Positions 51,225 through 64,000 are shown, numbered from the stretch's first letter. The stretch is DNA of 64,000 nt from Acidobacteriota bacterium (GCA_965248695.1 CBDFKD010000002.1:4416001-4480000); one strand, 5' to 3'. Notes: generated from the letters alone by a model not told the origin. Program-made: numbers and translations.

Positions 51225-52511
51225 ATGCCCCGAATGGTGCTGAAACGAACACCCACCGTTGCCGTTGCCCTCTGCATCAGCATGATGGCGGCGCCGGCGC
51301 TGAGTGCCGGCCCGATCCCGACACCTGCCAAGCAGGAGACCACGGCGCGTCGCATCGTGGCGATCGGCGATATCCATGGCGCCTATGACGATCTCGTTTC
51401 GGTGCTCGGTGCCAGCGGCATTATCGACGGTGACCTGAAGTGGAGCGGCGGTGACACCGTCCTGGTACAGACCGGCGACTTCATGGACCGTGGCGCTGGG
51501 GTGCGCCAGGTCATGGATTTGCTGATGCGACTGCAACACGAGGCACCGGCTGACGGAGGTGAGGTCGTCGTACTACTTGGCAATCACGAGATCATGAACC
51601 TGATCGGTGAGTTTCGGGATGCGAGCCCCGAGCAGATAGCCGAGTTCCTCGATGAAGAAGAGGACGCGGATGACGTCCTCGACAGCGCATGGGACGAGCT
51701 GCAGCGGGTCATCGAGGCGACGTCGACCGGAAGGATGTCTTCGCGCCGCCGCCGCGAGCTACGCAACAGCTGGCTGGAGAGCACGCCCGCCGATCGCATC
51801 GCCTACATCCGGGCTGTCGGACCGGACGGCTCGTACGGCGCCTGGTTGAGGACGCTGCCGCTGGCTGCGGATATTGACGGGATCGTCTTCATGCATGCGG
51901 GGGTGGCGCCGGAGATGGCTCCACGCGGCCTCGAGGCCCTCAACCAGCGGGTCGCTGCCGAGGTCGTCGCCATCGATGCCTATCGGGCCAGGCTGTTGGA
52001 GGATCGCCTGACGACGACCTTCAGTGAGCTGAGGGAGGTCCTTCGCGCCGCTGCTCAGGCCACGGGAGGCTTGGAGTGGTTCGACAACTCGAAGGCCGGC
52101 CTGCCCGAGCTGGCGCCCGCCGGCGGGAATTCACAGGATGAGCGACGAGCCTGGTACGAGGCCCTTTTTCGCATCCAGAAATGGTATGCCCTGGCCGAGC
52201 GCGGACCGTTGTGGTTTCGCGGGCTGGGGGAGTTGGCGGATCCGGACAACGCCGCGGTGCTCGAAGCGCTTCTCGGTGGGCTCGGGTCGCGCGCGATCGT
52301 CGTCGGCCACACACCTCAGATCGAAGGTATTAGCGCCCGGTTCGATGGTCGGCTATTCATGATCGACACTGGCATGCTCGCCTCGGTCTACGACGGTCGG
52401 GCGGCAGCGCTGGAGATCGATGGTGAAGCGGCGACAGCGATCTATGCGGACGGGTCCCGGGTAGAGCTCCCTGCACTGGCTGCCGCCGTCGGAAGTCCCG
52501 GCGAGCGCTGA
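51225..52511 (+). CDS. Secreted metallophosphoesterase (Shewanella-like phosphatase type)
   Basis: 'GDIHG', 'GDFMDRG', 'GNHE', 'HAG', 'GPLW.R', 'GHT', 'IDTG'; signal peptide. Confidence 0.88.
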   Translation: MPRMVLKRTPTVAVALCISMMAAPALSAGPIPTPAKQETTARRIVAIGDIHGAYDDLVSVLGASGIIDGDLKWSGGDTVLVQTGDFMDRGAGVRQVMDLLMRLQHEAPADGGEVVVLLGNHEIMNLIGEFRDASPEQIAEFLDEEEDADDVLDSAWDELQRVIEATSTGRMSSRRRRELRNSWLESTPADRIAYIRAVGPDGSYGAWLRTLPLAADIDGIVFMHAGVAPEMAPRGLEALNQRVAAEVVAIDAYRARLLEDRLTTTFSELREVLRAAAQATGGLEWFDNSKAGLPELAPAGGNSQDERRAWYEALFRIQKWYALAERGPLWFRGLGELADPDNAAVLEALLGGLGSRAIVVGHTPQIEGISARFDGRLFMIDTGMLASVYDGRAAALEIDGEAATAIYADGSRVELPALAAAVGSPGER

Positions 52512-52531: not shown

Positions 52532-53272
52532 ATGGACGTGAGCTGGCGGCGCCTGCTCGACGCACGGATGGATCGTGAGCTGGTCGTCTGCGCTGTCTCC
52601 GAAGGTGTGGGCACGTTCGTGCTGACGTTCTTCGGCGCGGCGGTTATCTGCACCGACGCGTACAGCGGCGGGCAGGTCGGGCTCGTGGGCATCGCGCTGG
52701 CGCACGGGCTGGTTCTGGCGGCCATCGTTAGCGCGCTCGGCCACGTGTCCGGCGGGCACGTCAACCCCGCGGTGACGATCGGGGCGCTGCTCGTACGGGC
52801 GATCGACCCACCACGGGCGCTGGTATACATCGGTGCTCAGCTAGCGGGAGCGATGGTTGCTGCGCTGATGCTGGCGGCCACCTTCGGGGCCGATGTTTGG
52901 CAGCCGGTGCACCTGGGCGCGCCAGCGCTGGGCCCTGGTGTGGAAGCCGGGACGGGTGTGTTCATCGAGATGGTGCTGACATTCGTTCTGGTACTTGTGA
53001 TCTTGCAGATGGCGGCCGATCCGCGCGCCCCTCGGTATGTGCATGGGCTGGTGATCGGGGCCACGCTAGCCGCTGCGATCCTGGTCGGGGGGCCGCTGAC
53101 CGGCGCGGCGCTCAACCCCGCGCGCGCGTTCGGGCCCGCCCTCGCGGCCGGATACTGGACCGCGCACTACGTTTACTGGGTTGGACCGATACTTGGCGGT
53201 GTCGTCGCGGCGGTGCTGTACGGCTATCTCAGCGCCGCCCGATCAACCGATGTCGGCGAGGAAAGCGATTGA
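52532..53272 (+). CDS. Aquaporin (MIP family)
   Basis: 'SGGHVNPAVT' and 'LNPARAFGP'; about six TM helices. Confidence 0.95.
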   Translation: MDVSWRRLLDARMDRELVVCAVSEGVGTFVLTFFGAAVICTDAYSGGQVGLVGIALAHGLVLAAIVSALGHVSGGHVNPAVTIGALLVRAIDPPRALVYIGAQLAGAMVAALMLAATFGADVWQPVHLGAPALGPGVEAGTGVFIEMVLTFVLVLVILQMAADPRAPRYVHGLVIGATLAAAILVGGPLTGAALNPARAFGPALAAGYWTAHYVYWVGPILGGVVAAVLYGYLSAARSTDVGEESD

Positions 53273-54693
53273 AGAGAGCGGCGGTAGGGGCGCTTGCGGG
53301 GGTCGTGAGCCTGACCATGGCGGCAACGGCGTGCGCACCGACTGCCCCCGAGGTGCCCGTTCCGCAGCGGCTGGTACTCATCACGGTGGACACGTTGCGT
53401 GCCGATCACATGTCGAGCTTCGACTACCCGATCGCGACGACACCGTTCCTCGATCGACTCGCCGCCGAGGGGACGCTGTTCACCCGCGCCTACGCCCACT
53501 CTGCCACGACCAAGCCGTCGCACGCTTCGATGTTCACGTCGCTGTACCCGGTGCAGCATCGAGTGCAGAACAACGGCTTGGTGCTCGACGAAGAATTCGA
53601 AACCATGGCAGAGCTGATGGCTGCCGCCGGCTACGAGACCGCCGCCTTCGTCAGCATCGATGCGCCCTTGGGTGGGAACGTTCGGCAGGGTTTCGAGGTG
53701 TGGGATCAGCACCGCGTAAACCGCGATCAGGAAGAAGGTCGGAAGATGTACCGCGCTGCCGGAGACACCGTCGACCGCGCACTAGCGTGGATTGACGAGG
53801 TCACCGCAGAAGGCCGCGATCACTTTTTCCTATGGCTGCATGTCTACGATCCCCACAAGCCGCTTCAGCCGCCGGCCGATGTTCTGGAAGAGGTCGAAGG
53901 GATGATCGCGGCCCATGGCGAGCAGGCCTATCGAGATCTTCTGATCAGCCGTGGTATTCCGGTCGGTGACGATCAAGACGCTGCCCGCAACGCTGTAGCC
54001 GCCTACGATGCCGAGATTCTCTACGCCGACCGTCAACTGGCGCGATTGTTCTCCCACCTGGACGCGAGTGGGCTCAACGACGAGGCACTCTGGATCGTTA
54101 CCTCCGATCACGGGCAGGGACTCGGGGCACACGAATGGTTCGGTCACTCCAAGCAGATCTACAACGCTCAGCTCTGGGTGCCGTTGTTGTTCTGGCAGTC
54201 AGAAAGCCCGGTGGGAATTCGAATCAGCGAGCGTGTAGTCCAGCACGTCGACCTGCTGCCGACGATCAGCGGCGTGTTCGGACTCACACCCAACCAGATC
54301 ATGCCCATGCAGGGGCGCTCGCTGGAGCGATATCTCGTTGGTGGGCGTCCGCGCCAAGCCGGGTGGTTCGCGTTCTCCGAGCGGAGCCTCTACGAGAATG
54401 CGTCGAGCAGGAGGCAGCAGCGTGGCAACTACGAGTCCGGCGAGCGATACGCGCTCCAGGACATCGAGTACAAGTACATGCTCTATTCCGACGGTGACGA
54501 CGAGTTCTACGATCTGCGGACAGATCCCTACGAGCTCGTCAACATGATCGACTCCCCCGAGCTCGCCGAACGGCGCGACCAGATGCGCGACGTGCTCGCC
54601 GGGCTGCTGGAGAACATGCCGAGCGAACGCCAAGCGCAGACCGTATCGCCGGAGGATATCGACCGCCTGCGGGACCTCGGCTACATCCAGTAG
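53269..54693 (+). CDS. Sulfatase-like hydrolase/transferase, lipoprotein
   Basis: 'ITVDTLRADH', 'TKPSHASMFT', 'DPH', 'SDHG'; C-terminal 'RLRDLGYIQ'; TTG start overlaps the aquaporin stop. Confidence 0.88.
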   Translation: MKRAAVGALAGVVSLTMAATACAPTAPEVPVPQRLVLITVDTLRADHMSSFDYPIATTPFLDRLAAEGTLFTRAYAHSATTKPSHASMFTSLYPVQHRVQNNGLVLDEEFETMAELMAAAGYETAAFVSIDAPLGGNVRQGFEVWDQHRVNRDQEEGRKMYRAAGDTVDRALAWIDEVTAEGRDHFFLWLHVYDPHKPLQPPADVLEEVEGMIAAHGEQAYRDLLISRGIPVGDDQDAARNAVAAYDAEILYADRQLARLFSHLDASGLNDEALWIVTSDHGQGLGAHEWFGHSKQIYNAQLWVPLLFWQSESPVGIRISERVVQHVDLLPTISGVFGLTPNQIMPMQGRSLERYLVGGRPRQAGWFAFSERSLYENASSRRQQRGNYESGERYALQDIEYKYMLYSDGDDEFYDLRTDPYELVNMIDSPELAERRDQMRDVLAGLLENMPSERQAQTVSPEDIDRLRDLGYIQ

Positions 54694-54859
54694 CGCGGGC
54701 CCCGCAAATACGGCCTGTTTTCGGGGGTCAAGGGGCGTGAAAGTGGGGTCTGAACCCATACTTTTGGCACGAAGTTGGCACTACGATCTTTTGGCGACAC
54801 GAGAGTTCGCGATGGGCGAGTGTGGGTTCTACGGTTTCTGCTGAGCGCCGCTACGGATT

Positions 54860-55029
54860 CGGCTCGCAAGACGCGGGTGATGACGGATCGCTATGTGCAC
54901 ATGACGGAGATGCATGCGGCTGAGGCGTTGGAGGTTCGCGAGACAGTGCGAGAGTTCCCCGGAGCGCGTGCAAGAGAAGCCCTAGCTCAGGGTCTCGGGA
55001 CGACTCCTAGCCGGGCCCAGGCTGCATGA
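54860..55029 (+). pseudogene. C-terminal fragment of a tyrosine recombinase
   Basis: 'KTRVMTDRYVH' resembles the box II GH...T..Y.H motif; the rest of the gene is absent. Confidence 0.45.
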
Positions 55030-55325
55030 CCGCTTTCTCCTTGGTGAATACGAAGACGTTGCTCACGTATGTCATCTGATCTCGCAAGCTGCGAAAGAAG
55101 TCTTGCCTGGGGTTGGGTGCCAAGGCGCGCGCAGCGACATAGCCGTGGACGTCAGCCACCTGGAGTAGCGGGTGCTTATGCCACTGAGCCGAAGGAACGA
55201 CATGCGGCTCAACGCGATAGTTGTGGCCCTTCGGCGCTCCAACCGCGGAGAATCCGGAGTAGCCTTTGTGGGCCTGGTAGCGTTTCTTCCCGTGCAGGAA
55301 TCTGATCTTCGTTGGGTCGGCCGAT

Positions 55326-56729
55326 GAGTTATTTGCAAATGTTGTGGATCGGTGGATTTGTTCAGGCGGCGTCTTCGCTAGCGATCAGGTGAACTCCATC
55401 GACGAATGTGGCGCCCTCGAGTACGAGGGCAGTGAGGTGAGGAGCGTTGATGCGGCGCCATCGTTGCTGTGCCATCTCCAGGAGCTTGAATGCCATCGTC
55501 AGCGCCTTGGTGCGTGAGCCGGCGCCCTTGGTGACGCGTTGTCTCAGGCGTACGGTGGCGAACGCCGACTCGATCGGGTTGGCCGTGCGCAGATGAACCC
55601 AGTGGTCGGCGGGGAAGTCGTAGAACGTCAGCAGCTTGTCGGAGTCGCGTTGCAACGACGCCACGGCCTTGGAGTACTTGGCGCCGTAGTCGGCTGCGAA
55701 CCGCGCCATGCCCTCCTGAGCATCCTCGCGCGTTGGCGCACCGATGATCTCGTGCAGCGCGCGCTTGGCTTTGGCCTGCAGCCGCCTCGGTAGCTTGTCG
55801 AGCACGTTGCCAAGCCGATGCACCCAGCATCGTTGCTCTCGAGTCTGGGGCCATACATCCCGCACCGCCGCCCAGAACCCCAGCGCCCCATCACCCACTG
55901 CCACGAGCGGCGCCCGCATGCCTCGACGCTTCAGCTCCCGGAGCACGAACGCCCAGCTCTCGGTGCTCTCTCGATACCCGTCCTCGACCGCGATGAGCTC
56001 CTTGGTTCCGTCCGGCAAAACGCCCAGGATCACCAGCGTGCACAGCCGATCATCCTCGAGTCGAATGTTGAAGTGCACACCGTCCGCCCACACGTATACG
56101 TACTGCTTGGTGGACAGATCCAGCTTCCGGAATGCCTCGTACTCCGTGCTCCAGGCGTTCGTCAGCCGGCAGATCGCCGATGCCGACAGCCCGCTGGCTT
56201 CCTGTCCCAGTAAGATCGGCAGCGCCTCCTTGAAGTCGCCCGTCGACAGGCCCCGCAGGTACAGCACCGGCAGCACCTCCGCCACCTTCGGCGAGCGCCG
56301 CATGTAGGGCGGCAGGATCCGACTGCTGAACCGCTGCCTCAGTCCCTGCTCGTCGAGCCGCTTGTCGTTGACCCGTGGCGCGGCTACTTGCACCGTCCCG
56401 CACCCCAACGTGATCTTGCGTGCGCGAGCCCGACCGTTGCGTACCACTTGCCGACGGCCGGCTTCATCCAGTTGCCCGGCGTGGCTCTGGATATACTCCT
56501 GAACCTCCCACTCCAGTGCTGTTGCCAGCATCTGCAGCGCGCCCTGCCGGGCGAGCTCATCGACGTCCAGTGTCAGCTGTCCTTCCTCCGCGTCCGATCC
56601 ACCGATAATCTTGAGCACGGGTGGCGTCTCCTTCCCGGCCTCCACAGCCGGCTGCTGGTTGTTGATGATCCCAGCGAAGGTTACGCCGCCTTTCTTTTTC
56701 CTCCCATCCACAACTTCCGGTTATATCTC
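55326..56729 (-). mobile_element. IS256-family insertion sequence
   Basis: Imperfect terminal repeats GAGTTATTTGCAAATGTTGTGGATCGG / GAGATATAACCGGAAGTTGTGGATGGG (19/27); no target duplication visible. Confidence 0.88.
55362..56618 (-). CDS. IS256 family transposase
   Basis: 'RNG', 'LYLRGLSTGD', 'WADG', 'GDGALG', 'QRCWVH', 'TANPIES'; AGGAG before GTG at 56618. Confidence 0.95.
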   Translation of the reverse strand: MLKIIGGSDAEEGQLTLDVDELARQGALQMLATALEWEVQEYIQSHAGQLDEAGRRQVVRNGRARARKITLGCGTVQVAAPRVNDKRLDEQGLRQRFSSRILPPYMRRSPKVAEVLPVLYLRGLSTGDFKEALPILLGQEASGLSASAICRLTNAWSTEYEAFRKLDLSTKQYVYVWADGVHFNIRLEDDRLCTLVILGVLPDGTKELIAVEDGYRESTESWAFVLRELKRRGMRAPLVAVGDGALGFWAAVRDVWPQTREQRCWVHRLGNVLDKLPRRLQAKAKRALHEIIGAPTREDAQEGMARFAADYGAKYSKAVASLQRDSDKLLTFYDFPADHWVHLRTANPIESAFATVRLRQRVTKGAGSRTKALTMAFKLLEMAQQRWRRINAPHLTALVLEGATFVDGVHLIASEDAA

Positions 56730-57397
56730 TGACCCACGCCAAAGGGGCGTTTGGGTGGGGCGTGAAGTTGAAGATGTTTGACTCCAACCCCGGTGCCGGC
56801 TTGGTGCCGCAATACGAGAAATCAGATCGCCGCGCACTGACCGAAGACGAGCGTAGCAAGGTCATCAACAACGCGGAGCATCGAGACTACTGGCTAGCCT
56901 ACCTATTCGCGGGTCTGAGGACATCGGAGTTTGCAGAGCTCCCGGTGGAGCACGTACACATCGACACACCGGGTCCGTATCTGTTCGTCATCGGCAAGGG
57001 CAACAAGGAACGCATCGTCCCTCTACAGGGTGCGCTCGCCGTCGGTCACTTCCGCAAACTCAGGGATGCTGCTGTGGTTCGCGGGGATTCGATGGTGTCG
57101 CCGGTTCGAGCAGCCACGTTGCAGAAATACTGGAAGAAGGATCGCGAGGCGCTAGGGCTTCCAAACGAGATCAAAATACACAACTTCCGGCACACCTACG
57201 GAACGTTCATGGCGCAGGAGGATGTGATTGGAACGCAGGCCGCGATGGGTCACGAGGACATCAAGACGACAATGGAATACGTGCATCAAGACGACCGGAA
57301 GATCCGCGAAGCATCGGCACAGTGGAGCGCAGTATTGAGTAGCGATACGCAGACTGATGTCACGAACTTGGCACTGGAGTCAGAAAAAGCCATATAG
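56730..57397 (+). pseudogene. Tyrosine integrase, 5'-truncated by IS256
   Basis: 'GLRTSE', 'GKG', 'HNFRH', 'GH', 'EYVH' all intact; the frame stays open back to the IS end ('THAKGAFGWGVKLKMFDSNP'). Confidence 0.85.
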
Positions 57398-57452
57398 GAC
57401 GGTTGGTCTGCGGCTACTTCTATAAACCGGTGTCAGCCGGGTCGCTGGATGG

Positions 57453-58292
57453 CTAGATGGTGACGCCGAAGCGCCCCTTGAGCGCGAACGCGATGGCGAT
57501 GGTCAGCAAGAAGAAGACGATCAGCCAGTCCGTCTCGTAGCCGAAGAGGCCAACCGTACGGGTCGGGTAGATGACCTCGATCTCACTCACCGCGCCGTCG
57601 GCGGGTAGGGAAGACTCGGCCGGGTAGAGCAGCAGATTCACGAAGCCCGGCTGCAACCGGTAGGGCGCTCGGCGCACCACGGCGTCGGAAACCACCACCC
57701 GCTTGCTGACCTGCTGGCCGGCTATGTCGAACTCGACCTCGTAGTCGCCCGGGGCGTCGGCCACGATGCGCCAGGCCAGTTGATTGCGCGTCTGGATCCA
57801 CACCCGGGGGCTGTCGAGGCGCAGCCCGGCGGGCAACGTCAAGGTGGCCGCCGGCGGCTCGGCGCCCGGCGCATCGCCGGCGAGGGTCACCTGCAGGATG
57901 GTGCGCTCACCCGTCTCCAGGCCGCGGTACCCGTAGTGGAACTGCAGCTGCGCGATGACGAGCACAAACGGCACCATCATGAACACCATCGGCACGAGGT
58001 TGAGGCCGAGGTAGGTCATGTTGTTGCGCAGAATGCCGCCCTGAGCGCGCAATATCGCCACGATGTCGTCGTTGAACAGACGGATCTCGAACAACCCGGC
58101 GGCGATCTTGCGCTTCACGGCCTCGATGGCGGGCTGATTCGAGGTGGTGCGGTACCCGAGCAGCATGAGCACGGCGCATCCGACGGACACGAGAGTCAAC
58201 CCGATCATCGGGTGCAGCTGCTGGAAAGGCCGCAACACGACGTCGAATAGGAGACGCAAGACGCCGTTCACGGCGCCGAAGATGGCGTTCAT
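57453..58292 (-). CDS. Membrane protein resembling DUF106/EMC3/TMCO1 (Oxa1 superfamily) with an inserted beta-rich domain
   Basis: Amphipathic N-terminus, TM1, helical hairpin, 'NLVPMVFMMVPFVLV' TM2, about 130-aa beta-rich loop, 'WLIVFF' TM3. Confidence 0.6.
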   Translation of the reverse strand: MNAIFGAVNGVLRLLFDVVLRPFQQLHPMIGLTLVSVGCAVLMLLGYRTTSNQPAIEAVKRKIAAGLFEIRLFNDDIVAILRAQGGILRNNMTYLGLNLVPMVFMMVPFVLVIAQLQFHYGYRGLETGERTILQVTLAGDAPGAEPPAATLTLPAGLRLDSPRVWIQTRNQLAWRIVADAPGDYEVEFDIAGQQVSKRVVVSDAVVRRAPYRLQPGFVNLLLYPAESSLPADGAVSEIEVIYPTRTVGLFGYETDWLIVFFLLTIAIAFALKGRFGVTI

Positions 58293-58312
58293 GGCGGTCG
58301 GTGGTTATCCGG

Positions 58313-58507
58313 TCAGGAGATGTAGCCGAGGCCCTGGAGCTTCTTGCGGATCTCTTCCTCGGAGTCGGCCTCCTCGAGAACCGCGAGCTCCTTTTCGAGC
58401 GCGTAGGTGATGAACTCCTCGACCGATGAGTAGCCGGCGATGTCGGCATACTTCCTCACGCGATCGAGCAGCCCTGTATCGAGCTGGATCTTCCCGCCTC
58501 CGAACAT
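58313..58507 (-). CDS. Small ribbon-helix-helix-like protein with C-terminal LxxLGY tail
   Basis: 'KIQLDTGLLDRVRKYA...GYSSVEEFITYALEKEL' plus 'EEEIRKKLQGLGYIS'. Confidence 0.8.
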   Translation of the reverse strand: MFGGGKIQLDTGLLDRVRKYADIAGYSSVEEFITYALEKELAVLEEADSEEEIRKKLQGLGYIS

Positions 58508-58536
58508 CGTGGTTCTCCCGCCTAGAGCCCGCTGGG

Positions 58537-60555
58537 CTAGTTGGATTCAACCGTCACCGGAGCGCTGCCGTCCGGAAATCCGTCGATGCCGTATTCGGCC
58601 AGTAGCGCCGCCGCCAAGTTCTGCAACGACGAGGCCGAGCGCGTCAGCGCCCGGTTGGTCGCCAGAACGCCGGGTACGTCCGTCGGATCCCAGATGTGGG
58701 AGCCAGACCAGTCGTCAGTGTTGTAGGTGATGGATTCCGCTGCCAGCCCGCCGAGAGCGCCGTTGCCGGAACCGCGGAAACCTGGCGCATAGCCGACGAT
58801 CAGGTCGGGCCCGACCTCGAGGTGGCCGCGGTCGTGGAAGTCGCGGTCGCGTAGGAAGACCTTGGTGACTGCATGCTCGCCGGTCGCCGGATCGACGGTG
58901 GCGAGCAGGTCGCGCTCGAGCTGGAGGAGCAACTCCTCGCGATCGCCCGGTGCGACCGCCCCCTGCGGCTCTCGACCGCGAATGTTGAGATAAAGCGCGC
59001 TGATGCCGACGCTGTATGCCTGCGTCTCACGCCAGTCGACGCCGGTGAAGAACTCGCGCACGGGCAGGCGCGTGCGGCGTTGCAGCGCCATGTAGCCGTT
59101 CTCGTGCAGCCACGTATTCAGATGGAACGTTCGCCGCCAGCTGCCGAACCCGTGGTCCGACATGATCACCAGCAGCGTGTCGTCCGAGATCCGATCGAGC
59201 GTTTCACCGACAAGGGCATCGAACTCTGCGTAGACCTGCGGAAGGACGTCCTGATAGGGGTCATGGAGGTCGCTCACGTAGGCGGGGTGCTCGGGGTCCC
59301 GTGTCAGGCCCCACATGACGTGTGAGAGCTGGTCGACGCTGCCGAAGTACGAGAACAGGAAGCCACCGTCCCAGTCGTCTAGCAGGAGCTTGAATTGCGT
59401 CGTCGTTTCGGCGCGCGTCAATGCCACCTGCTCCAAGAACTCATCGATGTCGAAGACACCCCACTGGATTGCCTTGGTGTCCTGCGGCATCTCCTGGGTG
59501 TAGTAGCGGCCGGTGGCGTCTACGAGGTCACTCGCGAACGACTCCGGATGCGAGATCGGCGACGCCGGGTTGGCAGGGTCGATCTGTATCGGCGTCACGT
59601 AGAGGCCGAAGTCCGGGCGCAATGACTTCAAGTAGAAGCGCACGGCGCCGGAGATCGACATCACGTAGGGCACCAGGTCGAAGTCGACGCCGACCCACGG
59701 GCTCCATTCTCCGACCTGGAGGATGAGCTCCTGATCGTCGATGACGATCTTGGCGACCGCGCTGTCCGGATCGACGAACACTTCGAAGTCGGCGCCGACG
59801 GCGTCGGATTCCTCCAGCGTGAAGGGATTGTCGGGGAGGGCATAGAGGGTGCCGTTGAACTCCCCATCGATGAGGTCGGCGGGGTAAATGTTGCCGCCGG
59901 AAACGTCCGACTTCATGAACTGGCGCCTATCCGTCGAGAAGAACGTGAACTCACCGGGCGTGCCGCCGAGATCGGGGGTGCCCATGCCGGATAGCTCTCG
60001 GGTACCGACGCCTACCGGCGGGAAATTGGCCGGCATTCGCACCAGCGTCGTGTCGATGCCGGCGTCGCTCAGCAGCTGCCAGAAAGGGGTGCCGTAACGC
60101 GCCAGCCGGATCTCGCCGCCGCTAAGTGGGAAAACCCATCCCCCGAGGCTGATGGAACGACCCACGGGTGCTTCCTTGGTCATCGATTGATATGGCCAGC
60201 CGAAGGGCAGCGGCGGTTCTCGCTCCAAGTCGCGATGCAGGAAGTCGAAGATGCCGTGGCCGCCCGAGTCCAGGCCGGTGATGAAGTTGGACCAGGCGAC
60301 CGGGCTCTGAGGTGTGACCGACGTCTCCAGGGGACCGAACGACCCCGATTCCTCGAGGCGTTTGAAATTCGGTAAACGCCCGGCGTCGATGAGCTCCCGA
60401 GTGAGGGCGTAGTCGAGGCCGTCGATGCCTAGCACGATCATGTCGGGCCCAGCCGACGACGTGCCGCTGCTGCAGCTGGCGATCGTCGTCGCTGTCAGCA
60501 CGACGATCGAGGCGAAGATCATCGGCGACGAGATGCGCCGGCGGCCGAGGCTCAT
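58537..60555 (-). CDS. AlkP-superfamily (NPP/COG3379-like) enzyme, predicted lipoprotein
   Basis: Lipobox 'IASC'; 'GIDG', 'PQSPVAWSNFITG', 'SDHGF', 'WSGSH'; ATGA overlap. Confidence 0.88.
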   Translation of the reverse strand: MSLGRRRISSPMIFASIVVLTATTIASCSSGTSSAGPDMIVLGIDGLDYALTRELIDAGRLPNFKRLEESGSFGPLETSVTPQSPVAWSNFITGLDSGGHGIFDFLHRDLEREPPLPFGWPYQSMTKEAPVGRSISLGGWVFPLSGGEIRLARYGTPFWQLLSDAGIDTTLVRMPANFPPVGVGTRELSGMGTPDLGGTPGEFTFFSTDRRQFMKSDVSGGNIYPADLIDGEFNGTLYALPDNPFTLEESDAVGADFEVFVDPDSAVAKIVIDDQELILQVGEWSPWVGVDFDLVPYVMSISGAVRFYLKSLRPDFGLYVTPIQIDPANPASPISHPESFASDLVDATGRYYTQEMPQDTKAIQWGVFDIDEFLEQVALTRAETTTQFKLLLDDWDGGFLFSYFGSVDQLSHVMWGLTRDPEHPAYVSDLHDPYQDVLPQVYAEFDALVGETLDRISDDTLLVIMSDHGFGSWRRTFHLNTWLHENGYMALQRRTRLPVREFFTGVDWRETQAYSVGISALYLNIRGREPQGAVAPGDREELLLQLERDLLATVDPATGEHAVTKVFLRDRDFHDRGHLEVGPDLIVGYAPGFRGSGNGALGGLAAESITYNTDDWSGSHIWDPTDVPGVLATNRALTRSASSLQNLAAALLAEYGIDGFPDGSAPVTVESN

Positions 60556-62672
60556 GATCCGGACCCCTCGGCTGGGACGCTTTCGTTGAACAGCGGCCGT
60601 CCGTCCATGTACTTGGGGGTCGGGACGCCGAATTGCTGCAGTGCCGTAGGGGCAATGTCGATCAGCGACGGATCGTCCACGTCGATATCGCGATTGCAGA
60701 ACAACACGCCGGGGACCAGCCTCGGGTCGACGCAATGGTCGCCGCTCCAGGCCTTGACGTTGTCCTCGAACTGCGGCGCGTCGACCACACCGGTGGCACA
60801 GTCCCAAGACGTCCGATAGCCGCGGTTGTAGCCGATGACGAACTCGGGGGCGTTCTCGAGATAGGGGCCTTGATACAGCTTGGCAGTATCGAACGCCTGC
60901 ACGATGGCGATCTCGTCACGCTCCTCGTCGCGTAGTCCTCGAAGCTTGGCGCCAATCTCCGTCTTCAGCTCTTCGACGTCGGCGCGCTCGACGATGCCCT
61001 GCGATTCGCGTCCCTTGATGTTGAAGAACATCCCGGACAATCCGAGACAGTAGGCACGGGTGCGTGACCAGTCGACATCGCGAAGCCATTCGGCGGTACC
61101 GTCGGCGCCCTCTTTGAGAGCAAGGTACCCGTTGTCCATCAGCCAGCGGTTGAGGTTCACACCGCGGCGGAACGAGGTGAAGCCGTGGTCCGAAAGGACC
61201 ATCAGCAAGTCGTCCTCGGTGATCTTCTCCAGTACCTCTCCGACGAGCGCGTCGTTGCGCACGTAGAGCTCCTCGATGGTGTCGCGACAGTCGCTCTCGC
61301 TACCGTCGTCGGCAGGATGCCCCTTTTCGATATAGCGCCAGAACATGTGCTGGATGCGGTCGGTGGCGTCGAACACGCATACCAGGCAACCGCGTCGGAG
61401 ACGCTCCAGAGCCGAGAAGAACATGTCCTTGCGCTCGACATCGATGTCGAAGGTCAGCTGCTTGAAGTGATGATCGTCGATCACCTTCTCGTTCAGCGCC
61501 CAGGTGTCCTCGGCGAGCCCCAGCGTCGAGTACTTGCCCTGCATCTTTGACAGATACACGGCGTAATAATCCGGGTGGGAGATCGGCATTGCCGGGCGTT
61601 CGGGATCGAGAGCGATTGGCGTCATGTACATGGAAAAGTCGCCGTTCATCTCGGTCATCATGACGCGCGCGATGCCGCGCACCTTGACCCCGGGGGCGGC
61701 GGGGAACGTCAGCGACACCCAGTCGGAAATCTCTCCGATGGTCAGGTCGACGCTTTCGGTGCCGAAGGCGACCCGTGCCCGGTTCTCGGTGCGGTCGAGC
61801 TCGGCGATGATCGGCATCTCCAGCGGTGGGCTGTCTTTGCGGAGTATGTTCTCGGGGCCCCGCAGCGTGCCGGTGACTCGATCGCCATCCATGGTGACGG
61901 GAACTCGAAGTCCGCCCTCCTTGAACTTGCTGCTTTCCGGCCGCGTCGTGAAAAGCAAGAAGGTGCCTTGGGTGCCGAGCAGGTCCGGGACGCACATCGC
62001 CGACAGCTGGGCGCCGTAGAAACGGTCTGGCGGAAAGGTGATCGGCACGCGCAGGACGGTGCTCCAGATGTTGTGTTCGCCGAGCACGCTCCAGAACGGC
62101 TTGGACTTTCGCAACAGTCGCAGTTCGGGCTTCTCGAGCGGGATGCGGAACGGACCCAGGCTCAGGAAACGATCTACGGAGCCGATCTTGGTCGACGAAA
62201 GCACCGGCAGGTAGGTTCGGCGGTCCCGATCCAGGAAGTCATAGATGTTGTGGCGCGCCGGGTGGGAGCCGGTGGAGAACGACGACCAGGCAACGGGAGA
62301 GATCGACGGGAACGTCGTCTGGAGCGGCTTGTAGCAGCCCATGTCGGCGAGCTTCTTGAAGTTCGGCAGCTTGCCTTCGGCCATGAAACGGTCTGTGAGC
62401 TCGGGATCCTGTCCGTCGAATCCGACGACGATGAACCGCCGAATCTTCGGTGCCACTTTGGTGCGGCGGGTGACCGCGCGCCACAGCGTGCGGAATGGCC
62501 AGATCAGCAGCGACGCGAACACCGCCAGGATGGTGGTGAACAGCACCAGAAAACTGCTGATGAACGCGAATCCGGCGCCAGGACCGACGTAGGCGTGGGC
62601 AGTCAGTGGGATCAGGAAGACCATCAGTGTGGTCAGGATGAGGCACGATGCGAGCCGCAAGCGCACGTTCAC
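60552..62672 (-). CDS. AlkP-superfamily (NPP/COG3379-like) enzyme, membrane-anchored
   Basis: Signal peptide, 'AYVGPGAG', TM helix, basic stretch; 'GFDG', 'SISPVAWSSFSTG', 'DRIQH', 'SDHGF', 'WSGDH'. Confidence 0.9.
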   Translation of the reverse strand: MNVRLRLASCLILTTLMVFLIPLTAHAYVGPGAGFAFISSFLVLFTTILAVFASLLIWPFRTLWRAVTRRTKVAPKIRRFIVVGFDGQDPELTDRFMAEGKLPNFKKLADMGCYKPLQTTFPSISPVAWSSFSTGSHPARHNIYDFLDRDRRTYLPVLSSTKIGSVDRFLSLGPFRIPLEKPELRLLRKSKPFWSVLGEHNIWSTVLRVPITFPPDRFYGAQLSAMCVPDLLGTQGTFLLFTTRPESSKFKEGGLRVPVTMDGDRVTGTLRGPENILRKDSPPLEMPIIAELDRTENRARVAFGTESVDLTIGEISDWVSLTFPAAPGVKVRGIARVMMTEMNGDFSMYMTPIALDPERPAMPISHPDYYAVYLSKMQGKYSTLGLAEDTWALNEKVIDDHHFKQLTFDIDVERKDMFFSALERLRRGCLVCVFDATDRIQHMFWRYIEKGHPADDGSESDCRDTIEELYVRNDALVGEVLEKITEDDLLMVLSDHGFTSFRRGVNLNRWLMDNGYLALKEGADGTAEWLRDVDWSRTRAYCLGLSGMFFNIKGRESQGIVERADVEELKTEIGAKLRGLRDEERDEIAIVQAFDTAKLYQGPYLENAPEFVIGYNRGYRTSWDCATGVVDAPQFEDNVKAWSGDHCVDPRLVPGVLFCNRDIDVDDPSLIDIAPTALQQFGVPTPKYMDGRPLFNESVPAEGSGS

Positions 62673-63961
62673 TGGTCGTACTCCCGCTCCAGGTGGGCGG
62701 CGATATCCCCGATCCACAGGTCACCCTCGATGGGTCGAGGCGTCAACAGAAAGGCGTCGTCGTACGTGTGCATCCCCACGAGGTCGCTGCGTCCGAACAC
62801 CTCACCCGCCGCCGGAGACGCCTTGAGATCGAATCCGGGGAAAGCAAGGGCGACAAGGTCGGGACCGCCCGCTCTGCAGGGCCCCCGTTCGTAGACGTCC
62901 GCGGTGTCGAAAACGTCGCGGACGACCCGGTGCCCATCATACCGCAGCTGTTTGAGCGCGTCGGCGATCTCGGCTTTCAGCGCCGGCGCTTGCTCATCGC
63001 TGACGCTGCCGCGTCCGAACCGTGCAGTCCGATTCAGATAGATGCGGCTGGGATCGAGCGCGAAAGCTCGGCTGGTAGGCTCGATCGAGGTCAGGTCAGT
63101 GGGCGAATCTGCCGTCAGCGACAGATAACCGAGCTGTTTCAATGCGGCGTTCAGCTGCACTTCCTGACGGATGGCGCAGAAGCCGTGGTCCGACAGCATC
63201 CAGAAACGCGCCGCCGGCTCGGACTCCTCGGCAGCGAACCGGTCCCAGATGTCGCCGACGAACGTATCAACGGCGCGGTGGTAGTCGAGCGCCTGTGCAT
63301 GTCGCGGATGGTCGCTGTTCTGCAGCGCGTCCCAGAGATAGTGGTAGAGCCGATCGGTTCCGGTGACCACCACTTGAAGAAAACCCCAGTCGACCTCGTC
63401 CCACAGGCGCATGACGGCTTCGCGCCTTGTCTGCAGCGTCTGCCTGAGGTCCCGCATTAGCCAGTCGTGGTCCTTGCGGCTTCTCGCGGTATCGATATCG
63501 ATGCGGTAGTTCATGCGGCGCAAAGGACCCAGCCATCGCAACGGCTTGACGGAGCGGCTCAGGTCCACAGCGACGAAGCCAGAGACCATCACCCCTGGAA
63601 TCGCGCGCGCCGGGTAGGTCGCGGGTTGATTGAGGACGACAGAGGTGACGCCACGGCTGCCGAGCCGGTCCCATAGCGTCGGCACGCGAACGTCCGCAAA
63701 GCTGGGGAAGGTCAGGCGATAGGTCTGCGGCTCGATGTCCGTGAACCCGAAAATCCCGTGCGTACCTGGATCCACACCGGTCATGAAGCTCGACCAGCTC
63801 ACCGACGAGATTTCCGGCAACGAGGCCTTCATCGAGCGTAGGTGACCTTCGGCGATGCGCTCCGCCACGCGCGGCATGACGCCCTCGTGGGCCAGTCGGC
63901 GCAGCAGCTCCTCCGGGACTCCGTCGAGGCCGATCAAACAGAGCCGCTTATGTTCCGACAT
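62669..63961 (-). CDS. AlkP-superfamily (NPP/COG3379-like) enzyme, cytoplasmic
   Basis: No signal peptide; 'IGLDG', 'EISSVSWSSFMTG', 'DRLYH', 'SDHGF', 'GMH'. Confidence 0.9.
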   Translation of the reverse strand: MSEHKRLCLIGLDGVPEELLRRLAHEGVMPRVAERIAEGHLRSMKASLPEISSVSWSSFMTGVDPGTHGIFGFTDIEPQTYRLTFPSFADVRVPTLWDRLGSRGVTSVVLNQPATYPARAIPGVMVSGFVAVDLSRSVKPLRWLGPLRRMNYRIDIDTARSRKDHDWLMRDLRQTLQTRREAVMRLWDEVDWGFLQVVVTGTDRLYHYLWDALQNSDHPRHAQALDYHRAVDTFVGDIWDRFAAEESEPAARFWMLSDHGFCAIRQEVQLNAALKQLGYLSLTADSPTDLTSIEPTSRAFALDPSRIYLNRTARFGRGSVSDEQAPALKAEIADALKQLRYDGHRVVRDVFDTADVYERGPCRAGGPDLVALAFPGFDLKASPAAGEVFGRSDLVGMHTYDDAFLLTPRPIEGDLWIGDIAAHLEREYDQ

Positions 63962-63980
63962 TGGCGCCCCTTACGCTGGA

Positions 63981-64000
63981 TCAGAGATAGCCGAGTGACT
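63981..64000 (-). CDS. 3' end of an upstream gene ending '...SLGYL*' (partial)
   Basis: Minus strand reads (n)AG TCA CTC GGC TAT CTC TGA, 19 nt before the next start codon. Confidence 0.5.

Follow-up and report, generated by a model that had tools for sequence, protein, structure and literature searches.

Why should unrelated proteins encoded side by side in one bacterial locus end in the same short peptide, when the enzymes among them lack it? The question is raised by a 64,000-nucleotide stretch of an Acidobacteriota genome (the window; G000:C2:4416001-4480000), at the right end of which a minus-strand operon runs on past base 64000. In operon order it encodes a CysQ-type 3'-phosphoadenosine 5'-phosphate (PAP) phosphatase (PF00459), the 71-residue protein RHH2, an ATP sulfurylase (Sat; PF01747 and PUA_2), the 199-residue adenosine 5'-phosphosulfate (APS) kinase CysC (PF01583), three paralogues of the alkaline phosphatase (AlkP) superfamily named AP430, AP721 and AP675, all of them matching PF01663, the 64-residue ribbon-helix-helix (RHH)-like protein RHH1, and the membrane protein MEM279. 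Sat, CysC and CysQ form a set for making 3'-phosphoadenosine 5'-phosphosulfate (PAPS). The sulfatase-like gene SULF (PF00884) lies on the opposite strand. The answer that we favour, and hold with about as much belief as doubt, is that the peptide, here called the LGY tail, is a docking helix native to AlkP-superfamily enzymes, which has been grafted onto RHH1, RHH2 and CysC and would dock them in trans onto tail-less enzymes of the COG3379 type, with RHH1 docking onto AP721.

An initial annotation, made from the sequence of the window alone, had pointed out an LxxLGY tail on three neighbouring genes, namely SULF, the 64-residue RHH1 and a gene entering from the window edge, and its absence from the three AlkP paralogues. 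Both observations are confirmed. The SULF protein ends in EDIDRLRDLGYIQ and the RHH1 open reading frame (ORF) in EEIRKKLQGLGYIS, while the minus-strand frame entering at base 64000 reads SLGYL-stop. When the ORF beyond the edge was retrieved it proved to be coding, the APS kinase CysC (PF01583, E = 4e-59) with the end RTRLESLGYL. The last residues of the four carriers at the locus are RLRDLGYIQ in SULF, KLQGLGYIS in RHH1, RLESLGYL in CysC and KLENLGYL in RHH2; the AlkP paralogues end in HLEREYDQ, VPAEGSGS and PVTVESN.

The position of the motif at the end of proteins is far in excess of chance. Among six-frame ORFs of at least 50 aa in the 5.9-Mb genome the pattern L..LGY[ILVMF] occurs 39 times, and 12 of these occurrences lie at most one residue from the stop, whereas uniform placement would give 0.27 (Poisson P = 2e-16) and composition 0.14. 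The 12 C-terminal carriers comprise nine PF00884 proteins, CysC, RHH1 and RHH2. In six paralogous PF00884 proteins of the same genome (G000:C2, L209-L214) the motif is internal (…LxRLAALGY[IV]G), and a short acidic linker leads from it to ~330-350 residues of tetratricopeptide repeats (TPR).

A core R-L-x-x-L-G-Y-[ILV] is common to the SULF, RHH1 and CysC families, with the Gly and the Tyr 100% conserved and the protein ending 0-1 residues past GY[ILV]. When profiles made from each family's final 18 columns were compared, the best local match was in each case to the tails of the other two families (hhalign P = 7e-8 to 2e-5), and comparison with the AP721 and MEM279 alignments gave nothing significant (P 0.02-0.38). 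This bears out the proposal that the tail is portable, since one core closes three unrelated families. Internal look-alikes in the AP enzymes (LNAALKQLGYL, LNRWLMDNGYL and LNTWLHENGYM, after SDHGF) were dropped; the CysC tail profile matched AP721 residues 524-532 with a P of only 0.087.

We then characterized the distribution of the tail over 80 RHH1 loci from at least five phyla. The tail is present on RHH1 in 80/80, on SULF-like proteins in 23/24, on CysC in 7/7 and on RHH2 in 5/5 cases, and is absent from AP721 (0/61), AP675 (0/62), AP430 (0/7) and all 73 complete copies of MEM279. Homologues of RHH1 number 932 at E ≤ 0.01 and form 1081 clusters (50% identity) at E ≤ 0.001; those at 67-97% identity come from Acidobacteriota, Gemmatimonadota, Omnitrophota, Schekmanbacteria and others, and always stand in the order AP721-AP675-RHH1-MEM279. 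A GY[ILVMF] end is found in 115 of 150 representatives of the RHH1 family, most of the rest looking truncated or frameshifted. Apparent fusions of RHH1 with AP675 (P0127) or with MEM279 (P0230, P0204) were set aside, as their garbled junctions suggest artefacts of gene calling or frameshifts. One RHH2-type protein (P0219) carries two tandem tails with an acidic linker between them.

In 151 Acidobacteriota genomes, including the unpublished G049 and G024, RHH1 is strong in 43 and weak in 3. Matches to AP721 at E ≤ 1e-250, a cut-off picked after two score tiers were visible, occur in 41 genomes, all of them among the 43 RHH1-positive ones; in the remaining two (G112, G074) the gene is split or truncated by the contig, and the best AP721 score in any RHH1-negative genome is 8e-187. 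At the DNA level the pattern L..LGY[ILVM]-x-stop gives 731 matches compared to 272 for the reversed control, and an excess of at least 4 is seen in 27/43 RHH1-positive and 20/105 RHH1-negative genomes, demonstrating that tails also exist without the module. The pattern demands exactly one residue after GY[ILVM] and thus undercounts tails of the CysC and RHH2 types, and it accepts TGG as a stop (one false match among the 39 in genome G042).

Genome G042 illustrates where the tail is at home. It has neither RHH1 nor a detected AP721 orthologue, and 38 of its 39 matches are real tails, all on AlkP-superfamily enzymes, 33 of the sulfatase type and five of the nucleotide pyrophosphatase/phosphodiesterase (NPP) type, four of the latter being full-length carriers with lipoprotein or membrane N-termini. 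Likewise, a GY[ILVMF] end is present in 114 of the 120 closest homologues of SULF, in line with what the initial annotation had said of sulfatase-like and COG3379 proteins. Tail-rich genomes could not be told apart by the presence of PF01663 (16-58 matches in each of five genomes), because the model also matches sulfatase-type proteins. The carriers outside the AlkP superfamily, RHH1 and the extended CysC, mostly have COG3379-type enzymes as neighbours, and the enzymes of this type in the module are tail-less. We read this pattern of occurrence as indicating a tail native to exported AlkP-type enzymes that was probably copied onto CysC and RHH proteins specifically in the presence of tail-less COG3379 enzymes.

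The co-occurrence with tail-less COG3379 enzymes and genes for PAPS synthesis is most clearly seen for CysC. This protein aligns over residues 2-150 to positions 1-152 of the adenylyl-sulfate kinase profile, and an acidic linker with an LGY tail follows in 112 of its 120 nearest homologues. Among 77 CysC loci from many phyla the extension is found in nine. A COG3379 gene is present in seven of these nine loci (the other two are short contigs) compared to 8/68 without the extension, although the associated P-value (Fisher P = 8e-5) overstates the case, as related loci are not independent. In five tail-rich genomes that lack the module, CysC aligns only from residue 2 to residues 173..183 and is therefore without the tail. 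The native last helix of the CysC kinase domain (…SLELMGYV) is itself LGY-like, which makes the extension look like a duplicate of that helix.

What could the tail bind? The three AP enzymes match the NPP/type I phosphodiesterase family (PF01663) above the Pfam cut-off. As read from the sequences, AP721 has two N-terminal transmembrane helices and, by the positive-inside rule, a cytoplasmic catalytic domain, AP675 and SULF carry lipoboxes (TIASC and AATAC, respectively), the former placing AP675 probably in the periplasm, and CysC has the P-loop GLSGSGKST. Between the predicted membrane helices of AP721 the segment A-Y-x-G-P-G-A-G (residues 42-49, window 62571-62594) is invariant in 51 orthologues.

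Modelling a tail-enzyme complex had been suggested in the initial annotation as a check. Our model contains three chains, AP721 residues 88-721, MEM279 and RHH1, with a 51-row alignment each, taken from the loci, and RHH1 as the scored partner. RHH1 scores 0.62 (0.62, 0.62 and 0.63 in the individual runs), the best of three controls 0.00. Agreement between the runs extends to at least 95% of contacts, and the partner has a predicted local distance difference test (pLDDT) value of at least 77. RHH1 is placed on the catalytic domain of AP721 with residues 55-64 and the loop 24-28 (AGYSS, invariant in 51 orthologues), and with residues 22, 31-32, 35, 47-48, 50 and 52-53. The predicted interface on AP721 includes T149, F161-L162, 244-252 (PDLLGTQGT), 401-409, G617-P618, W657 and C662, of which W657 and C662 flank the invariant S-G-D-H motif. 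The lowest-error pairs connect residues 55-59 of the RHH1 tail with AP721 residues 248-252, L162 and W406.

Memory of a solved complex is an unlikely source of this result, as neither the AP721 catalytic domain nor AP430 has a solved sequence relative at E ≤ 0.01, and the best solved match of RHH1 is a weak one to 1y9b (E = 1.2). MEM279 receives no support as a partner of RHH1; no MEM279 residue appears in the listed interface and the score is 0.00 when AP721 is replaced, which is not evidence against binding. The model thus supports the binding of RHH1 to AP721 and is not proof of it, and capping of the active site by the tail is only hinted at.

The loop motif that the tail is predicted to contact, PDLLGTQGTF (PD.xG.xGxF), is found in 61 of 62 AP721 orthologues from RHH1 loci, and the strict pattern in only 28 of 62 AP675. 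Within the loop, Q250 (window 61971-61973) contacts G59 of RHH1 in the model and is Gln in all 61 motif-bearing orthologues, whereas the equivalent position is Trp, Asn or Met in the six motif-bearing of seven AP721-like enzymes from RHH1-negative genomes (L215-L221). Q250 may be a specificity determinant or only a clade marker.

Taken together, we propose that the LGY tail would be a short amphipathic helix (R-L-x-x-L) with a Gly cap, followed by Tyr and a hydrophobic residue, that serves as a protein-docking element. In its native carriers, Thr-type sulfatase-like and some NPP-type AlkP-superfamily enzymes, it would be the last built-in helix, and in the sulfation-linked module the peptide would have been grafted via acidic flexible linkers onto the other folds of RHH1, RHH2 and CysC. 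By way of the grafted tails, the carriers could then dock in trans on COG3379 enzymes that have no tail. RHH1 would bind the cytoplasmic catalytic domain of AP721 with its tail on the invariant PDLLGTQGTF loop and its AGYSS loop on a conserved surface that includes the residues flanking the SGDH metal-ligand motif. From such docking we infer regulation and channelling. RHH1 may serve AP721 as a regulatory subunit or as a cap, and might also be a DNA-binding dimer that the enzyme titrates; CysC tethered to AP430 or AP721 may deliver PAPS to AlkP-type enzymes that function as sulfotransferases or as transferases using PAPS; and in tailed periplasmic lipoproteins of the SULF type the tail may make oligomer contacts or reach AP675.

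Several results weigh against this explanation. The module cannot be the general receptor of the tail, as tails abound in genomes without it. The initial annotation had expected built-in and stand-alone tails to be anticorrelated, and this fails, with tailed and tail-less COG3379 genes occurring together in three loci: L083 has one tail-less and two tailed AP430-like genes beside a tailed CysC, in L080 a tailed AP-like gene lies 2.5 kb from RHH1, and in L216 a tail-less AP721-like gene adjoins a tailed AP430-like gene. Conversely, no tail-bearing ORF was found within ~5 kb in six of seven tail-less AP721-like loci of RHH1-negative genomes. The PD.xG.xGxF loop had to be rejected as a receptor signature specific to RHH1 genomes, and is not a tail-specific feature, as it is present in six of the seven AP721-like enzymes from RHH1-negative genomes. 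Of the idea that a tail is supplied in trans to a tail-less AlkP enzyme, the association within the RHH1 loci and the one complex model stand, and the anticorrelation does not. A narrower rule holds: within the conserved module the enzymes are never tailed and the small protein always is.

The complex model has its limits too. Its score is the model's own confidence; in the calibration, 58 of 80 solved complexes and 2 of 110 mismatched pairs came up to the mark, and these counts apply here only roughly, since our job used our own alignments and, with its three chains, is unlike the calibration. Invariant residues (51 orthologues) make up 23/41 of the AP721 interface compared to 160/593 elsewhere in the domain (Mann-Whitney P = 8e-5), an enrichment confounded by nearness to the catalytic centre, and how near the interface lies to the active site is judged from adjacency in the sequence. 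Although RHH folds form obligate dimers, RHH1 was entered as a monomer, and a dimer face left exposed may account for the contacts of residues 24-35.

The tails may also not be free for docking in trans, which leads to the alternative that survives best. Here the tail would be a structural cap or homo-oligomerisation helix acting within its own chain or between identical subunits, and CysC and the RHH proteins would share a solution for forming dimers or tetramers, with no hetero-docking; we regard this as doubtful, yet as a serious candidate. In the AlphaFold2 model of SULF (104-sequence alignment, mean pLDDT 93.5) the tail is a confident helix, residues 461-470 with pLDDT ~88, that is predicted to pack in cis. 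L467, G471 and Y472 of the tail are, like the catalytic residues, invariant in the 104 homologues, as are T81, P83 and H85. The CysC model (mean pLDDT 90.6, the five models varying between 79 and 91) has a tail helix at residues 183-196, after the linker, with moderate pLDDT of 71-78. The native last helix of many APS kinases ends in ..L..LGYL (L087, L134, L135, L141), suggesting that such a helix end is a common structural solution. That tails abound in genomes without the module fits this alternative as well.

There is precedent in the superfamily. Tail-mediated homo-oligomers are known for SmCS, phosphonate monoester hydrolases (PMHs) and arylsulfatases (AS): in the part of PMC5870055 available, the C-terminal tails of AP-type sulfatases and PMHs (SmCS, RlPMH, SpAS1) mediate oligomerisation and reach the facing protomer's active site, and the choline sulfatase SmCS is crippled by deletion of 12 residues. 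Like these extensions, the SULF tail lies past the shared AP/sulfatase fold, most solved sulfatases aligning to SULF only up to about residue 452-455. The phmmer alignments of 4uph and 2w8s end at SULF residues 427-438, and no listed match covers the LGY core; sequence likeness to the SmCS, PMH and AS tails was not seen, the PDB matches ending at about residue 440-455. In that same portion of the source, the tails of SmCS, RlPMH and SpAS1 have subgroup-specific sequences and act only between identical subunits, in contrast to the LGY tail with its one 8-residue core across PF00884, PF01663, an APS kinase and an RHH-like protein and its predicted action on a different partner. A purely homotypic role leaves unexplained why the carriers outside the AlkP superfamily stand mostly beside tail-less COG3379 genes, why the G-Y core is identical in three unrelated folds, and why long acidic linkers tether the tail; in addition, the model puts the RHH1 tail on AP721 with controls at 0.00.

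A second alternative takes RHH1 and RHH2 as ordinary ribbon-helix-helix operon repressors, with Mnt-like tails for tetramerisation or cooperativity whose likeness to the enzyme tails is convergent. We judge this distinctly unlikely as a full account; it is compatible with docking, and the two can coexist. The order strand, helix, G-x-S-S loop, helix, recognized by inspection, fits RHH proteins, and some sources name homologues of RHH1 CopG/Arc/MetJ family regulators. An operator-like palindrome, GATTGGGT-N10-ACCCAATC, lies ~35-60 bases upstream of the RHH2 start (L001:3349-3374, C2:4482349-4482374, just outside the window), is preceded by the word CTTGCA and is conserved in this genome and in L002-L004, whereas in L005 and L012 three direct GATTGGGT-like repeats replace it. 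However, RHH1 matches no Pfam or NCBIfam family at E ≤ 0.01, and its only candidate solved relative is the weak one named above. Across 78 distant relatives, conservation is lowest in the putative DNA-reading strand (0.47) and highest in the AGYSS loop (0.72) and the tail (0.70). RHH1 is located inside the operon, between the enzyme AP675 and the membrane protein MEM279, in 80/80 loci, and convergence of three families on an identical 8-residue core is unlikely.

Small RHH domains with a C-terminal partner-binding or oligomerisation tail are known from type II antitoxins (ParD, RelB, CcdA) and from Mnt. RHH1 resembles them in having an N-terminal RHH-like domain, a flexible linker and a short C-terminal helix, which could couple partner occupancy to DNA binding. 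It differs in that no RHH model matches at E ≤ 0.01, conservation of the putative DNA-reading strand is low, enzymes carry the tail as well and the predicted partner is a metalloenzyme domain rather than a toxin.

The conserved Tyr could instead be a modification site (sulfation, phosphoryl or nucleotidyl transfer) for the neighbouring AlkP-type enzymes, the tail being a substrate or pseudo-substrate. An acidic context is usual for Tyr sulfation, and the residues beside the tail Tyr are basic or hydrophobic. The complete conservation of the Tyr, the production of PAPS by Sat, CysC and CysQ, and the predicted interface near conserved catalytic motifs of AP721 would suit this idea. Sulfatase-like AlkP-superfamily proteins can moreover be sulfotransferases: Agl30 and Agl31 of Halobacterium salinarum (VNG1056C and VNG1057C) add rather than remove sulfate, as described in the accessible part of PMC11980604. 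Their case is a precedent for finding AlkP-type enzymes alongside PAPS-synthesis genes where no canonical sulfotransferase is encoded. As archaeal N-glycan enzymes they differ from the proteins studied here, and that part of PMC11980604 reports no LGY tail or RHH partner for them. A role of the tail as substrate nevertheless seems very unlikely to us, given that in genomes without the module the tails are mostly carried by exported enzymes and that the lowest-error contacts near the conserved motifs are made by S27 and S28 of the loop and not by Y62.

PEP-CTERM, LPXTG and GlyGly-CTERM signals consist of a motif followed by a hydrophobic helix and basic residues, and are known from exported proteins only. 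A sorting, secretion or degradation tag, suggested by the extreme C-terminal position common to many exported lipoproteins, was rejected as hardly credible, because the carriers are cytoplasmic (CysC, RHH1 and RHH2, with no signal peptide apparent) as well as lipoprotein- or membrane-anchored, the motif is internal before ~350 residues of TPR in six proteins of the genome, and the tail is a predicted packed helix that ends 0-1 residues after GY[ILV] with no hydrophobic anchor behind it.

The coordinates of the tail carriers, of the module and of the predicted contact sites are collected in the following table.

Table 1. Features of the LGY-tail locus in the window
Feature	Position	Strand	Basis
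SULF, Thr-type sulfatase-like lipoprotein with built-in LGY tail	53269..54693	+	PF00884 4.8e-48
SULF tail EDIDRLRDLGYIQ	54652..54690	+	
MEM279, membrane protein, fourth member of the AP721-AP675-RHH1-MEM279 module	57453..58292	-	no Pfam match
RHH1, 64-aa RHH-like protein	58313..58507	-	homologue and locus searches
RHH1 tail IRKKLQGLGYIS, residues 53-64	58316..58351	-	
RHH1 invariant loop A24-G25-Y26-S27-S28 (AGYSS)	58424..58438	-	
AP675, tail-less NPP/COG3379-type paralogue with lipobox	58537..60564	-	PF01663 6.2e-29
AP721, tail-less NPP/COG3379-type enzyme, two N-terminal transmembrane helices and cytoplasmic catalytic domain; predicted RHH1 receptor	60552..62717	-	PF01663 7.8e-29
AP721 loop P244-D-L-L-G-T-Q-G-T-F253, predicted contact of RHH1 tail residues 55-59	61959..61988	-	
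AP430, tail-less cytoplasmic NPP/COG3379-type paralogue, directly downstream of CysC	62669..63961	-	PF01663 2.7e-30
CysC (APS kinase), last codons and stop, extended tail	63981..64000; gene continues outside the window as L001:981-1580	-	

SULF matches the PF00884 fold and has T-K-P-S-H at the nucleophile position in place of the sulfatase motif C/S-x-P-x-R, the absence of which sets it apart from formylglycine-dependent type I sulfatases. Upstream of it lie a gene for a calcineurin-like metallophosphoesterase with a signal-like N-terminus (51225-52511) and an MIP/aquaporin gene (52532-53272), both ordinary-looking and with no link to the tail seen. Between SULF and MEM279 are an IS256/Mutator-family transposase (55362-56711, minus strand; PF00872, 1.3e-58) and an integrase fragment of the tyrosine-recombinase type (56762-57397, plus strand; PF00589). 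In the closest relatives (L002-L004) SULF directly adjoins MEM279 in convergent orientation, suggesting that the block at 55362-57397 is probably a recent insertion. At L216:658-3959 (genome G084) the tail-less AP721-like gene is followed directly by a 517-aa AP430-like gene ending in …DYSPEDEQTIRDRLTGLGYIS, which combines a linker of the CysC type with a GLGYIS end of the RHH1 type.

Short transferable peptides that bring unrelated proteins to a common receptor are familiar from the encapsulation peptides of microcompartments, the cargo-loading peptides of encapsulins and the EEVD ends of Hsp70 and Hsp90 recognized by TPR domains. The LGY tail shares with them that it is short, transferable, terminal and tethered by a flexible linker. 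It differs in that neither a shell nor an encapsulin nor a gene for a dedicated receptor was identified, that a catalytic domain is the predicted receptor, and that the motif also occurs internally before TPR. The proposed docking can be extended to an LGY 'plug' metabolon, in which CysC and the RHH proteins would sit on tail-less NPP-like enzymes at the cytoplasmic face and tailed lipoproteins on the periplasmic AP675, the RHH domains would report occupancy to the genome, and the AlkP-type enzymes would be the missing sulfotransferases. In this full form we consider it unlikely.

No published description of the LGY tail was found in a literature search that was crude and gives weak evidence of absence, and the literature looked up on COG3379 and sulfotransferases held no mention of COG3379. 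While a C-terminal docking or oligomerisation extension is already known in the AP superfamily, the occurrence of one conserved tag across unrelated folds, with a predicted hetero-partner, is new. Thousands of proteins annotated as 'sulfatase' or 'alkaline phosphatase family', from many phyla, end in the LGY peptide; the tail is thus widespread and unannotated, and RHH1-AP721 provides the first candidate partner, with a concrete interface, testable by mutation, in which the tail and the AGYSS loop of RHH1 would meet loop 244-253 and nearby conserved residues of AP721. If true, the docking would account for the coupling of PAPS synthesis to a conserved and unstudied pair of NPP-like enzymes that straddles the membrane and has no canonical sulfotransferase, and the LGY tail would be a transferable tag for recruiting proteins to AlkP-type enzymes. 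The metabolon, if it exists, would amount to a bacterial docking code for enzymes of the AlkP superfamily.

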